Assembly (NCBI GenBank): GCA_021962125.1
Contig: JAGDYQ010000002.1
Location: forward strand, 21,050,893 to 21,114,892
DNA from: Bulinus truncatus
Taxonomy: Eukaryota
DNA length: 64,000 nucleotides
Direction of reading: 5' to 3'
In this document: positions 1-40,308 of the stretch, piece by piece
Layout of the letters: each line of letters starts with the position of its first letter
How positions within the stretch are numbered: position 1 is the stretch's first letter
Notes under the pieces: generated by a model
Seen by the model: the letters and a program-made list of their open reading frames with translations, nothing else
Databases searched by the model: none
What the model was told of the DNA's origin: nothing
Made by a program: the position numbers and the translations under genes

Positions 1-2535
1 GTACTTGCTTCTTCAGTTGATGTTTCTGTCGTCTCCACATATGGTGCACTTGCTTCTTCAGTTGATGTTTCTGTCGTCTCCACATATGGTGCACTTGCTT
101 CTTTAGTTGATGTGTCCGTTCTCTCAATATATGGTGTACTTGCTTCTTCAGTTGATGTTTCGTTCGTCTCAACATATTGTGCACTTGCTTCTTCAGTTGA
201 TGTTTCTGTTTTCTCAATAGATGGTGTACTTGCTTCTTCAGTTGATGTTTCTGTCGTCTCCACATATGGTACACTTGCTTCTTCAGTTGATGTTTCTGTT
301 CTCTCAATAGATGGTGTACTTGCTTCTTCAGTTGATGTTTCTGTCGTCTCAATAGATGATGTACTTGCTTCTTCAGTTGATGTTTCTGTCGTCTCCACAT
401 ATGGTGCACTTGCTTCTTCAGTTGATGTTTCTGTTCTCTCAATAGATGGTGTACTTGCTTCTTCAGTTAATGTTTCTGTCGTCTCCACATATGGTGCACT
501 TGCTTCTTCAGTTGATGTTTCTGTTCTCTCAATAGATGGTGTACTTGCTTCTTCAATAGTTTTTTCTGTCGTCTCAATAGATGATGTACTTGCTTCTTCA
601 GTTGATGTTTCTGTTCTCTCAATAGATGGTGTACGTGTTTCTTCAGCTGATGTTTCTGTCGTCTCAATAGATGGTGTACTTGCTTCTTCAGTTAATGTTT
701 CTGTTCTCTCAATAGATGGTGTACTTGCTTCTTCAGTTGATGTTTCTGTTCTCTCAATAGATGGTGTACTTGCTTCTTCAGTTGATGTTTCTGTCGTCTC
801 AATAGATGGTGTACTTGCTTGTTTATTAGTTGTTGCTGTCGTCTCAATAGATGGTGCACTTGCTTCTTCAGTTGATGTTTCTGTTCTCCCAATAGATGGT
901 GTACTTGCTTCTTCAGTTGATGTTTCTGTCGTCTCAATAGATGATGTACTTGCTTCTTCAGTTGATGTTTCTGTCGTCTTCACATATGGTGCACTTGCTT
1001 CTTCAGTTGATGTTTCTGTTCTCTCAATAGATGGTGTACTTGCTTCTTCAGTTGATGTTTCGGTCGTCTCAATAGATGATGTTCTTGCTTCTTCAGTTGA
1101 TGTTTCGTTCGTCTCAACATATGGTGCACTTGCTTCTTCAGTTGATGTTTCTGTCGTCTCAATAGATGTTGTACTTGCTTCTTCAGTTGATGTTTCTGTC
1201 GTCTCAATAGATGTTGTACTTGCTTCTTCATTTGATGCTTCTGTTCTCTCAATAGATGTTGTACTTGCTTCTTCAGTTGATGTTTCTGTCGTCTCAATAG
1301 ATGTTGTACTTGCTTCTTCATTTGGTGCTTCTGTTCTCTCAATAGATGGTGTACTTGCTTCTTCGGTTGATGTTTCTGTCCTCTCAATAGATGGTGTACT
1401 TGCTTCTTCAGTTGATGTTTCCGTTCTTTCAATAGACGGTGTAATTGCTTCTTCAGTTGATGTTTCTGTTCTCTCAATATATGGTGTACTTGCTTCTTCA
1501 GTTAATGCTTCGGTCGTATCAATAGATGGTGTACTTGCTTCTTTAGTTGATGTTTCTGTTCTTTCAATAGATGGTGTATTTGCTTCTTCAGTTGATGTTT
1601 CTGTTCTCTCAATATATGGTGTACTTACTTCTTCAGTTAATGTTTCTGTCGTCTCAATAGATGGTGTACTTGTTCCTCCAGTTGATGTTTTTTTAGTTAT
1701 AGTAACGGATGTGCTTTTTTCTGCTGTTGATGTTTCTGTCGTCTCAATAGATGGTGTACTTGTTATTGTTGATGTTGCTTTTGTTGACACATGTATGTGA
1801 AGACGATTAGTTATCGTAGAGACAGACGGAGATGTAAAATATTCTGCTGAGACAGGTAACACTGCCCTCGATGCAATATTTATTGTTACAGAAGTTGTGG
1901 AAGACAGTGTGGAGACTGTTGGTGTAGATGTAGTCTGCACTGTTTCAGACAGTGTGGACACTGTTGGTGTAGATGTAGTCTGCACTGTTTCAGACAGTGT
2001 GGACACTGTTGGTGTAGATGTAGTCTGCACTGTTTCAGACTGAGTGGAGACTGTTGGTGTAGATGTAGTCTGCACTGTTTCAGACTGAGTGGAGACTGTT
2101 GGTGTAGATGTAGTCTGCACTGTTTCAGACTGAGTGGAGACTGTTATGTAGATGTAGTCTGCACTGTTTCAGACTGAGTGGAGACTGTTGGTGTAGATGT
2201 AGTCTGCACTGTTTCAGACAGTGTGGAGACTGTTGGTGTAGATGTAGTCTGCACTGTTTCAGACTGAGTGGAGACTGTTGGTGTAGATGTAGTCTGCACT
2301 GTTTCAGACTGAGTGGAGACTGTTGGTGTAGATGTAGTCTGCACTGTTTCAGACTGAGTGGAGACTGTTGGTGTAGATGTAGTCTGCACTGTTTCAGACT
2401 GAGTGGAGACTGTTGGTGTATATGCTGTTGTCAATGTTATGATAGATGTTAGGCCAGTGGTCATATAATAGTCGTCTGATGACATTTCTGTTTGAATGTT
2501 ACTTCCCGTCATAGACCCAGTGCTCCACGGTATAT
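1..2535 (-). CDS. Terminal PTS (mucin) exon that continues beyond the window start. It begins DIPWSTGSMTGSNIQTEMSSDDYYMTTGLTSIITLTTAYTP. Then come about 12 copies of the 14-aa repeat TPTVSTQSETVQTTS (42-bp units, about 1900-2410). Then come about 40 copies of the 15-aa repeat TSTEEAS(T/A)P(S/Y)(I/V)E(K/T)TE (45-bp units, 1-1800). The frame is broken by a stop and a 1-bp deletion at about 2144-2148.
   Basis: Acceptor aaaaacag|AT is in phase with the E exon. The minus frame is Ser/Thr/Pro/Glu-rich with no stops over the stretches checked. The frame with codon low-ends at coordinates divisible by 3 (mod-0 frame) below 2141 encodes the same peptide repeat as the frame offset by two (mod-2 frame) above it. 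Confidence 0.55.
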
Positions 2536-33174: not shown

Positions 33175-34480
33175 AGTGGCTTCGAATACGACCGGGCGTG
33201 TTACGTATTTTTTTTTCCGAGACACGACCAGCAAACTTTGATGACGTCAGTAAACAGAATGAACTCTTATGATTTAAAGTTATTTTATTTTCGCGGGAAC
33301 GAGCAATTTTTTCTACTTATACATTAAAATTGTAACTTAGCTTGTGTGTCCTTCTGGCACAATGGTTAAGCCGTTTGATCGTGACTCGCTTTTAATGCTT
33401 AATATATCCAGGTTCGATTCCTCTCAGCACATAACTTTTTTTTATTGTGTTTTTTTTTCAGAATGTATCCTTTTAGTTGTTTTAATGAAAAGTAACTAAT
33501 TAGATCTCTTTAACATTTTTTTAAATTGAAATAATGTTTCCTTTAGGATGTTGTAAGAAAAAGAAACAACAACTAATTAGGTTTTTTTAACTATTTCATA
33601 ACTTAAAAAAAATATTTTGAAAATATGTATCAAAGCTGAACACAGAGGCGTAACAAGGAGGGAGGGTCCAAAATCCAGCTCCAGCTTGAGGGGAGCCCCC
33701 AAAATTATTTTTTACATTAAATATTAAGTACATAATCTCAAGTCATGGTATCGAATGTCAAAATGTAAGGCCCCCAAATCCTAGGTTCGGCAATGGCTTT
33801 ACAATAGTCTATCTTCCTGCAAAGGCTTTGCAGGGTACAGCTAGTCCTAAATATTACCTAACTTTTCCTTACCATCATTTTTGCGGCACACTTTAAAAAA
33901 TTCAGAGTAGCCTACATATTTCAAATTTACTAAATAATAATAAGATTGGGAAACGAAAATAGAGGGGATGGGGAAGCATTTATATCCGAGAATTGAACCA
34001 AATACTGACGAAGACGAATTAACGAGTGTTAGCTTTCTGGGGGGGGGGGGGGGAGGGGTACAATAGATACTAATTTAGCGCATAATTTTTTATTTTATTC
34101 GTCCGACTTTATTAGGCTTGGGCAGACCCGAAAAAAAAGTAATAAAGAATAACTGCCGTGCATGTGCACATCTTTACTCTTAGTCTTAGACATATATCCT
34201 GACAACTAAAATATATAATTCAAAGCTGTATTTATTTAAAAAAAATTTTAATAAAAATATCTCCGATTATTAATAGCAAATGACTTTATTAGGCTTGGAC
34301 AGACCCGAAAAAAATTAATGCCAAATATTAAAATATCTCCGATTATTAACAGCAAATGACGTCATCAAAGTCTGCAGTAAATAAGAGTTCTCATTTATTC
34401 TGTTTACTGACGTCATCAAAGTTTGCTGGTCGTGTCTCGAAAAAAAAAATACGTAGCACGCCCGGTCGTATTCGAAGCCA
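33175..34480. mobile_element. Non-autonomous TIR element of about 1.3 kb with roughly 105-bp terminal inverted repeats at about 95 percent identity (acgcagtggcttcgaatacgaccgggcgtg...ttgatgacgtcagtaaacagaat).
   Basis: The TIRs at 33175-33280 and 34375-34480 are reverse complements. The interior holds a tRNA-like fragment (ggttcgattcctc at 33410) and duplicated gactttattaggcttgg.cagacccgaaaaaa segments but no ORF. Confidence 0.65.
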
Positions 34481-36960: not shown

Positions 36961-37062
36961 TTACTGCTCGTAATAGTCGTACTCCTCCTCTGACTGCGGG
37001 CTGTTCTCACTTTGGTTGTAGGTGACGTATTTCACAGGACACTGCTCACTCATGATTAAACT
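36961..37062 (-). CDS. VMAT: VMAT-like terminal coding exon (SLIMSEQCPVKYVTYNQSENSPQSEEEYDYYEQ* with the TAA stop at 36961-36963). The 3' UTR continues below.
   Basis: Acceptor ctgcag in phase 0 after EEKM. The tail is acidic with a dileucine-like motif, analogous to VMAT2 AILMDHN..EDEESESD. With this exon the total CDS is 1605 nt, exactly divisible by 3. Confidence 0.65.
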   Translation of the reverse strand, partial: SLIMSEQCPVKYVTYNQSENSPQSEEEYDYYEQ

Positions 37063-38134: not shown

Positions 38135-38975
38135 AGCATTTTCGAAAAAAAAATGCTCTATTGTCCCCGTTTTGTCTGTCTGTCTGTCTGTCTGTCCGTC
38201 ATCACCCTAGATCTCAACAACCATAAGTCCTAGACCCATGATGTATATATCATTTTGTAGGTCTTGGCCTGCCATGTGTGCAGCAAAAGTTCATTTCGCG
38301 ATCTGACCTCTGAGGGCCGTAAAAGGGGGCTTATAAAGTACCGTTTTTTACTATATAAGCTATATTAACAAAGGAGCGCCATATATCTCAGCAACCATAA
38401 GTCCTAGACCCATGATGTATATATCATTTTGTAGGTCTTGGCCTGCCATGTGTACATCAAAAGTTCATTTGACGATAGGACCTCTGAGGGCCGGGCTTCA
38501 GGGCTCCGAAGGGGCTTATATATTATATATATGGCCCCATTCTACACCTTGTACGTTCAATAACCCATTCATTTGGTACGAAATACTGCAGCAAGATTTA
38601 TTAAGAAACTCATCAAATGAAATAGTAAGCTTGTGGTCTGAGTTTAATTGAAAGTATCAGAGCTATGCAACAATTGACGGAGTTTTCGGACGATTAAATG
38701 ACTACAATTTCGAATGTTTTCAATTATGAGTCCTATTTCAGTAACCACAAACCACTTGTAGTTAGATTTAAGAGAAAATATTTTTTTTTCAAATATGAAG
38801 AAACGTCTTTATAATATTTGTTTACAGATATATGCATTACACAATTGAATTTATAAACATTTCCAAAATTTACAAATATTTACTGAAAGCTAACAAACGT
38901 ACTGATACATAACATGAAAATGCGCTAACACGTCCTGTGTCCAGAATGGAACAGGCTTAATTGCTTGTTTTTAAA
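38135..38975 (+). mobile_element. Interspersed repeat family A, copy 2, located between the VMAT 3' end and exon 14.
   Basis: Homologous to 9805-10650 with the same internal duplication (atctcaacaaccataagtcctagacccatgatgtatatatcattttgtaggtcttggcctgcca present twice). Confidence 0.75.
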
Positions 38976-39485: not shown

Positions 39486-39573
39486 CATTTTCTCCTCTTT
39501 CGCCGGCGGATTTCTCAAGAAATACAGCAAAGGGGCGTAAATCAAGTTAACTATGGCGATAATCCACAGCATC
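39486..39573 (-). CDS. VMAT: VMAT-like exon 14 (..[29 protein letters not shown]).
   Basis: Acceptor ccttcacag and donor ATG|gtgagt. It matches VMAT [29 protein letters not shown]. Confidence 0.8.
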
Positions 39574-39664
39574 CTGTGAAGGAACGATAACTCTGTTATG
39601 AAACTATTTGTGAAAATGACCAACTGAGCAATCCTCAAACTAACATAGAAACGTCTTTGACTAC

Positions 39665-39995
<331 letters not shown>

Positions 39996-40262
39996 TCTAT
40001 CTAATCTACCTATAATATCTATCTAATCTATCTATTTTATCTATCTATCAAATCTATCAAATCTATCTATCTAATCTACCAATCTAATCTATCTATCTAA
40101 TCTATCTATCTTATCTATATATCTAATCTATCTATCTAATCCATCTATCTTATCTATATATCTAATCTATCTATCTAATCTATCTATCTTATCTATATAT
40201 CTAATCTATCTAATCTGTCTATATAATATAATCTATCTCTATCTCTCTACTGTAAAACTTGC

Positions 40263-40308
40263 CAGTGAAATCCAATAGTAGAGACAATAGTTCCACTCAG
40301 CGAAGGGC
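40263..40308 (-). CDS. VMAT: VMAT-like exon 13 (PSLSGTIVSTIGFHW). It is followed by a non-canonical GC-AG intron.
   Basis: Acceptor tttcacag. It matches VMAT PSAGGAIAKAIGFPW. The only donor that keeps the frame is TG|GCAAGT, the classic GC-donor consensus. Confidence 0.65.

Follow-up and report, generated by a model that had tools for sequence, protein, structure and literature searches.

Introns of the GC-AG type form a textbook minority class, and the conversion of GT into GC donors in single lineages is common. These introns account for less than 1% of animal introns, and it is the major U2 spliceosome that excises them (PMC7072748); GT to GC conversions accumulate in evolution, exceeding the reverse change in mammals (PMC2490688). 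In human genes, where the same change is described as a +2T>C variant, around 15-18% of such variants still give wild-type transcripts and most abolish normal splicing (PMC8375439). Within the VMAT gene itself, Elysia chlorotica has an annotated GC-AG intron (AAG/GCAAGT, the slash marking the exon-intron junction, after CDS nt 1102) whose aligned donors in other species are GT. Since this intron occupies the eighth conserved position and not the thirteenth, which is the subject of the present work, it represents an independent GT to GC conversion, and its presence shows that such conversions recur in the VMAT gene.

Here we examined a stretch of 64,000 nt of the Bulinus truncatus genome (the window, to which all positions refer) containing a VMAT gene with a GC dinucleotide at the donor of intron 13. 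Our results indicate that this intron is very probably a genuine U2-type GC-AG intron, normally spliced from 40263 to 39573. That the GC site is spliced in vivo, and with what efficiency, are points that we infer from sequence.

The VMAT gene of the window

The coding part of a VMAT (SLC18A1/2-like) gene extends from position 36961 to 57476 on the minus strand and comprises 15 coding exons and 14 introns. The exon map was obtained by tblastn with a human VMAT2 query, which placed the exons colinearly on the minus strand between 57449 and 39486, and the boundaries were then set by hand. The resulting ORF, of 1605 nt and 534 aa, is open across all 15 coding exons, and 13 of the 14 introns are GT-AG, intron 13 being the sole GC-AG. 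When the 534-aa model was compared with solved structures, VMAT2 (E ~1e-186) and VMAT1 (2.5e-172) outscored the acetylcholine transporter VAChT (SLC18A3, ~1e-102) by far, and on this basis the gene can be assigned as a VMAT orthologue. The nearest homologues of the model are annotated as synaptic vesicular amine transporter, with PF07690/PF00083; the vesicular amine transporters of Physella, Biomphalaria, Bradybaena and Aplysia showed 82-88% identity to it, with the Physella acuta protein reaching 87% over the full length. A deposited hypothetical protein of B. truncatus, KAH9524952.1 (Btru_028335, 476 aa), is 100% identical to the model over its first 472 residues.

Three exons are directly concerned here, all on the minus strand. 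Coding exon 13 (40263 to 40308, 46 nt) encodes (G)PSLSGTIVSTIGFH and, with its last two bases, the beginning of a W codon. Coding exon 14 (39486 to 39573, 88 nt) encodes (W)MLWIIAIVNLIYAPLLYFLRNPPAKEEKM and spans TM12, and coding exon 15, the last one (36961 to 37062), encodes SLIMSEQCPVKYVTYNQSENSPQSEEEYDYYEQ and the stop codon; neither of these two is represented in the deposited proteins.

Several repeats were observed elsewhere in the window. Two tandem arrays with a 45-bp period, both with 0% indels, occupy positions 1-1776 (39.5 copies, 86% match) and 1902-2424 (11.6 copies, 97% match). The first of them coincides with a 562-aa open frame (112 to 1800, plus strand) for which no Pfam match was found, as was the case for four long ORFs in other parts of the window; because its period is divisible by three, the array may be a repetitive coding exon of some gene. 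Within intron 14, on the minus strand, two near-identical copies of a ~60-nt sequence that includes catggcaggccaagacctacaaaatgatatatacatcatgggtctaggacttatggttg lie at ~38215-38275 and ~38390-38450, about 175 nt apart, and probably belong to a repeat element, either dispersed or tandem.

Splice sites of the thirteenth intron and their orthologues

Read on the minus strand, the sequence across the end of exon 13 is tgtctttcacag, GCCCTTCGCTGAGTGGAACTATTGTCTCTACTATTGGATTTCACTG and gcaagttttacagtagag, in that order. The exon ends with GGA TTT CAC TG, and the 5' splice site is CTG/GCAAGT (40257 to 40265, minus strand), the GC being at 40262-40261. The intron (39574 to 40262, minus strand) is 689 nt long and lies in phase 2 within the Trp codon, and 689 nt further the minus strand reads ttatcgttccttcacag and then GATGCTGTGGATTATCGCC, with the acceptor AG at 39575-39574 and G39573 as the first base of exon 14. 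The join of 40263 to 39573 brings together TG and G to give W, followed by MLWIIAIV, which keeps the reading frame and leaves the 534-aa frame open. The initial annotation had proposed a GC-AG intron with these coordinates and this sequence after an exon numbered 13, and the 15-exon model agrees with it in each respect.

The 3' splice region (39574 to 39600, minus strand) consists of a candidate branch point, caTAAc, whose A at 39596 is ~23 nt upstream, a pyrimidine-rich tract ttatcgttccttc and the final acag, the acceptor reading ttccttcacag; both the branch-point-like element and the pyrimidine tract preceding the AG (within ttatcgttccttcacag) were identified by reading against the consensus only. 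Other AGs, in acagag some 19-21 nt upstream, were rejected as acceptors, their products, read by eye, containing a TGA or being frameshifted. The possibility of a U12-type intron was also rejected, as the donor is GCAAGTTT and not RTATCCTT, and as the TTCCTTCAC string near the 3' end is just 2 nt from the AG, where a TCCTTAAC branch site would be expected at ~10-20 nt, and is devoid of the TTAAC core. Most of the intron (85%) is made up of an (ATCT)n/(AGAT)n microsatellite detected by Tandem Repeats Finder at 39665 to 40249 (~141 copies, 83% matches), which begins only 12 nt past the GC donor.

Apart from +2, all the informative positions of the donor match the U1 consensus, with G at -1 and A, A, G and T at +3 to +6. 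Donor flanks were scored over positions -3 to -1 and +3 to +8 with a position weight matrix (PWM) built from 105 true GT donors, taken from the window gene and from seven gastropod VMAT orthologues by exact protein-to-genome mapping. The GC site obtained 7.84 bits, which places it at the 88th percentile of the 105 true donors. By contrast, the predicted U1 duplex had an energy of -4.4 kcal/mol, equal to that of the weakest real donor in the gene, as compared with -9.1 kcal/mol for a version bearing T at +2. Because the duplex fold is not register-constrained and the energies discriminate poorly between donors, we relied on the PWM. The C at +2 nevertheless weakens the donor, and the splicing efficiency at the GC site may be reduced. 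As for the motif itself, TGGCAAGT occurs twice in the window, with 1.9 occurrences expected by chance; what exceeds chance is its base-exact placement where an intron is conserved across eight orthologues from molluscs.

These orthologues were compared by retrieving their genomic loci and locating the exon 13/14 junction in each of them. In all eight molluscs an intron interrupts the Trp codon in phase 2 at exactly the same place in the CDS, and the donor is GT in every case: TG/GTAAGT in Biomphalaria (TTG/GTAAGT) and in Elysia, TG/GTAAAT in Physella, TG/GTAAGA in Bradybaena, TG/GTTTGT in Batillaria, TG/GTAGGG in Lottia, TG/GTGAGA in Littorina and TG/GTAAAC in Ostrea. Aplysia californica was left out of the donor comparison, its exon 13 falling in an assembly gap (4184 N). 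One T>C change, at +2, separates the TG/GCAAGT of Bulinus from the donor of Biomphalaria, also a planorbid. The GC-to-GT variation among related species that the initial annotation had proposed to look for was found, with position and phase unchanged. An unsequenced micro-exon, which it had named among the circumstances that could overturn the GC-AG reading, is rejected, because in the eight orthologous genes these two exons are joined with nothing between them.

At the protein level, 14 aligned homologues read GF[HQNP]W-[ML][LM], with neither a gap nor an insertion after the Trp, and the exon 13/14 junction aligns gap-free to solved human VMAT2. The segment with which the spliced product had initially been compared, GFPWLMTIIGII, corresponds to vertebrate VMAT2. 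In the cattle (Bos taurus) gene there is no intron at GFPW/LMTI (~position 33406 of the retrieved SLC18A2 locus), which suggests that intron 13 is a mollusc feature, or at least one unshared with vertebrates.

As side observations from the same comparison, the snails also agree in the positions and phases of the remaining gastropod introns, and in a 748-aa model of Biomphalaria glabrata the conserved exon 10 (RWLSAMIGM...CCFA) is replaced by ~230 residues of a PPVIAPP-type proline repeat that Pfam tags as Extensin_1. The repeat exon is probably a misannotation; a UniRef entry, unlike the 748-aa model, has the normal sequence.

Taken together, the conserved intron position, the gap-free protein alignments and the donor score support the GC-AG interpretation put forward initially, and so do the selection on the downstream exons and the C deduced at +2 of a second locus, which are described below. 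GT would be the ancestral state, by parsimony over the eight GT orthologues. An ancestral TG/GTAAGT donor, kept in Biomphalaria, would have changed along the Bulinus lineage by just one T>C transition, at +2, and, with the rest of the site fitting the U1 consensus, the major spliceosome should still recognise it. Joining 40263 to 39573 would then complete the Trp codon and lead into TM12 and the C-terminal tail, yielding the full-length 534-aa transporter. We consider normal splicing the most likely outcome because the donor has G at -1 together with AAGT at +3 to +6, which a working GC donor is expected to keep.

Less likely readings: intron retention, a downstream GT or base error

A quite unlikely alternative is that the T>C change disabled the donor, so that the intron is retained, or the transcript is polyadenylated or degraded, and a 476-aa product ending in GFHWQVLQ and without TM12 is made, either as a loss-of-function form or as a regulated isoform. 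This is the form found in the databases. KAH9524952.1 ends with TIGFHWQVLQ, which corresponds to reading through the donor (TGG CAA GTT TTA CAG TAG) up to the in-frame TAG at 40247 to 40249 (minus strand). The 90% cluster of this protein contains a second one from B. truncatus, KAH9525786.1 (Btru_002369), encoded on another scaffold, the longest (36.5 Mb), which differs from the former at 2 of the 476 residues and also ends with GFHWQVLQ. As a Gln after the Trp needs a C at +2, given that a T would read TGG TAA, a stop, the second locus, judged from its protein, has the GC donor too. The genome of B. truncatus is tetraploid (PMC8861042), and the two VMAT loci presumably are its duplicated copies.

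That both deposited models end at the read-through stop is a counterpoint to GC-AG splicing, since the annotation, a funannotate prediction, had included RNA-seq as well as protein evidence (PMC8861042). The drop in U1 duplex energy from -9.1 to -4.4 kcal/mol caused by the C is also in favour of a disabled donor, as is the fact that most human +2T>C variants abolish normal splicing, (PMC8375439), and the existence of two copies could relax the constraint on each of them. However, with the C in both copies, both VMAT genes would be null, and a 12-TM MFS transporter devoid of TM12 would presumably be unable to fold or function. Moreover, GCAAGT is typical of working GC donors and is also the form of the annotated Elysia chlorotica one. 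The two deposited 476-aa models appear to be truncated, lacking the 58 residues of exons 14-15, that is, TM12 and the C-terminal tail, and their shared end would be accounted for more simply by gene prediction in which the GC donor was passed over.

Selection on the exons downstream of the intron bears on the same question. Exons 14-15 are intact and have good splice signals, and their 62 codons differ from those of Biomphalaria by 29 synonymous and 4 non-synonymous changes, a pN/pS of 0.03 that equals the value for exons 11-13; compared with Physella, the figures were 0.057 for exons 14-15 and 0.047 for exons 11-13. Raw proportions are given because the synonymous sites of exons 14-15 are saturated for a Jukes-Cantor dS. 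These values point to strong purifying selection on exons 14-15, as a measure of long-term constraint with which a very recent loss would be compatible. An inactivated copy or pseudogene was rejected, as all 15 exons are open, the other splice sites are canonical and the pN/pS is 0.03 on both sides of the GC donor. When proteins were searched with the C-terminal 92 aa, no sequence from Bulinus that crosses the junction came up, a weak negative, as known full-length orthologues were missed too.

Use of a different donor is very improbable. The initial annotation had argued that no GT gives an in-frame join and that the GC is the only solution, which turned out to be wrong. With the acceptor fixed, an enumeration of all GTs and GCs across exon 13 and intron 13 left two in-frame, open joins, those of the GC at offset 0 and of a GT at +12 (ACA/GTAGAG; GT at 40249 to 40250, minus strand, junction 40251/40250), 12 nt downstream of the GC donor. 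The remaining GTs and GCs near exon 13 are out of frame, remove conserved residues or lie past the in-frame TAG; the GTs within exon 13 were ruled out for being out of frame, and the GT at +4 (CAA/GTTTTA) for losing the frame. Splicing of the +12 GT to the same acceptor would give a VMAT reading GFHW-QVLQ-MLWII, with four additional residues before TM12. This site keeps the canonical GT, and its unconstrained U1 duplex (-3.6 kcal/mol) comes close to that of the GC site, which is slightly better. Nevertheless, it lacks the G at -1 and the G at +5, its flank score of -4.08 bits is below those of all 105 true donors (minimum -2.3), and homologues across the range from molluscs to mammals are all free of an insertion there. 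The GT is simply the first unit of the intronic microsatellite. The conclusion in favour of the GC donor therefore survives the failure of the elimination argument, because the cryptic GT scores below all real donors and the homologues are without the insertion.

Finally, the least credible explanation is that the real donor is GTAAGT and that the C at 40261 arose in assembly or polishing or represents a rare allele: the assembly is Nanopore-based, the site is 12 nt from a 585-nt microsatellite that makes read mapping difficult and all eight orthologues have a T, but polishing with ~100x Illumina reads was applied and haplotigs were purged (PMC8861042), and, since both loci carry the C, as seen in the WQVLQ read-through up to the stop in the protein from the second scaffold, the same error would have to have arisen twice independently.

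The Bulinus intron among known GC-AG introns

Splicing at the GC donor, the reading that we prefer, makes the VMAT intron of Bulinus a fresh instance of a well-known and ordinary class, and as such it carries little biological weight. Its practical value lies in the correction of the annotation of both public models, whose apparent truncation is probably due to a pipeline that did not use the GC donor; users of KAH9524952.1 or KAH9525786.1 would be handling an incomplete transporter. The case also illustrates the systematic truncations produced by gene predictors limited to GT donors. B. truncatus is an intermediate host of Schistosoma haematobium, and monoamine signalling has been studied in snail-schistosome interactions. 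It could be imagined, though we consider it unlikely, that the GC donor acts in both copies as a regulated switch between the full 12-TM transporter, a retained-intron 476-aa protein ending in QVLQ or its NMD-targeted transcript, and the QVLQ isoform produced from the +12 GT, thereby tuning monoamine loading, for instance in the neuro-endocrine response to schistosome infection.

When compared with U2-type GC-AG introns in general, the Bulinus intron shows the same make-up, beginning with GC and ending with AG, with G at -1, AAGT at +3 to +6, a pyrimidine tract of the ordinary sort and a branch point that is plausible, at a site where the orthologues have GT-AG introns; there is no difference in kind, splicing in Bulinus being deduced. 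It also resembles the evolutionary GT to GC conversions described by Churbanov et al. 2008 (PMC2490688), in that a lineage-specific T>C change has affected +2 of an otherwise conserved intron. Those conversions concern primates and rodents, whereas the present one is from a planorbid snail and would be found in both copies of a tetraploid. With the human +2T>C variants that retain wild-type splicing it shares the change itself and the strong flanks expected to be necessary for function to be kept (PMC8375439); those variants are recent and were assayed in cells, whereas the Bulinus C appears to be fixed at two loci and is known from sequence. The closest parallel is the GC-AG intron of the Elysia chlorotica VMAT, which belongs to the same gene family and has the identical GCAAGT donor facing GT donors in other species. 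The two cases differ in the intron affected and in that the public gene model of Elysia chlorotica, unlike those of Bulinus, uses its GC donor.
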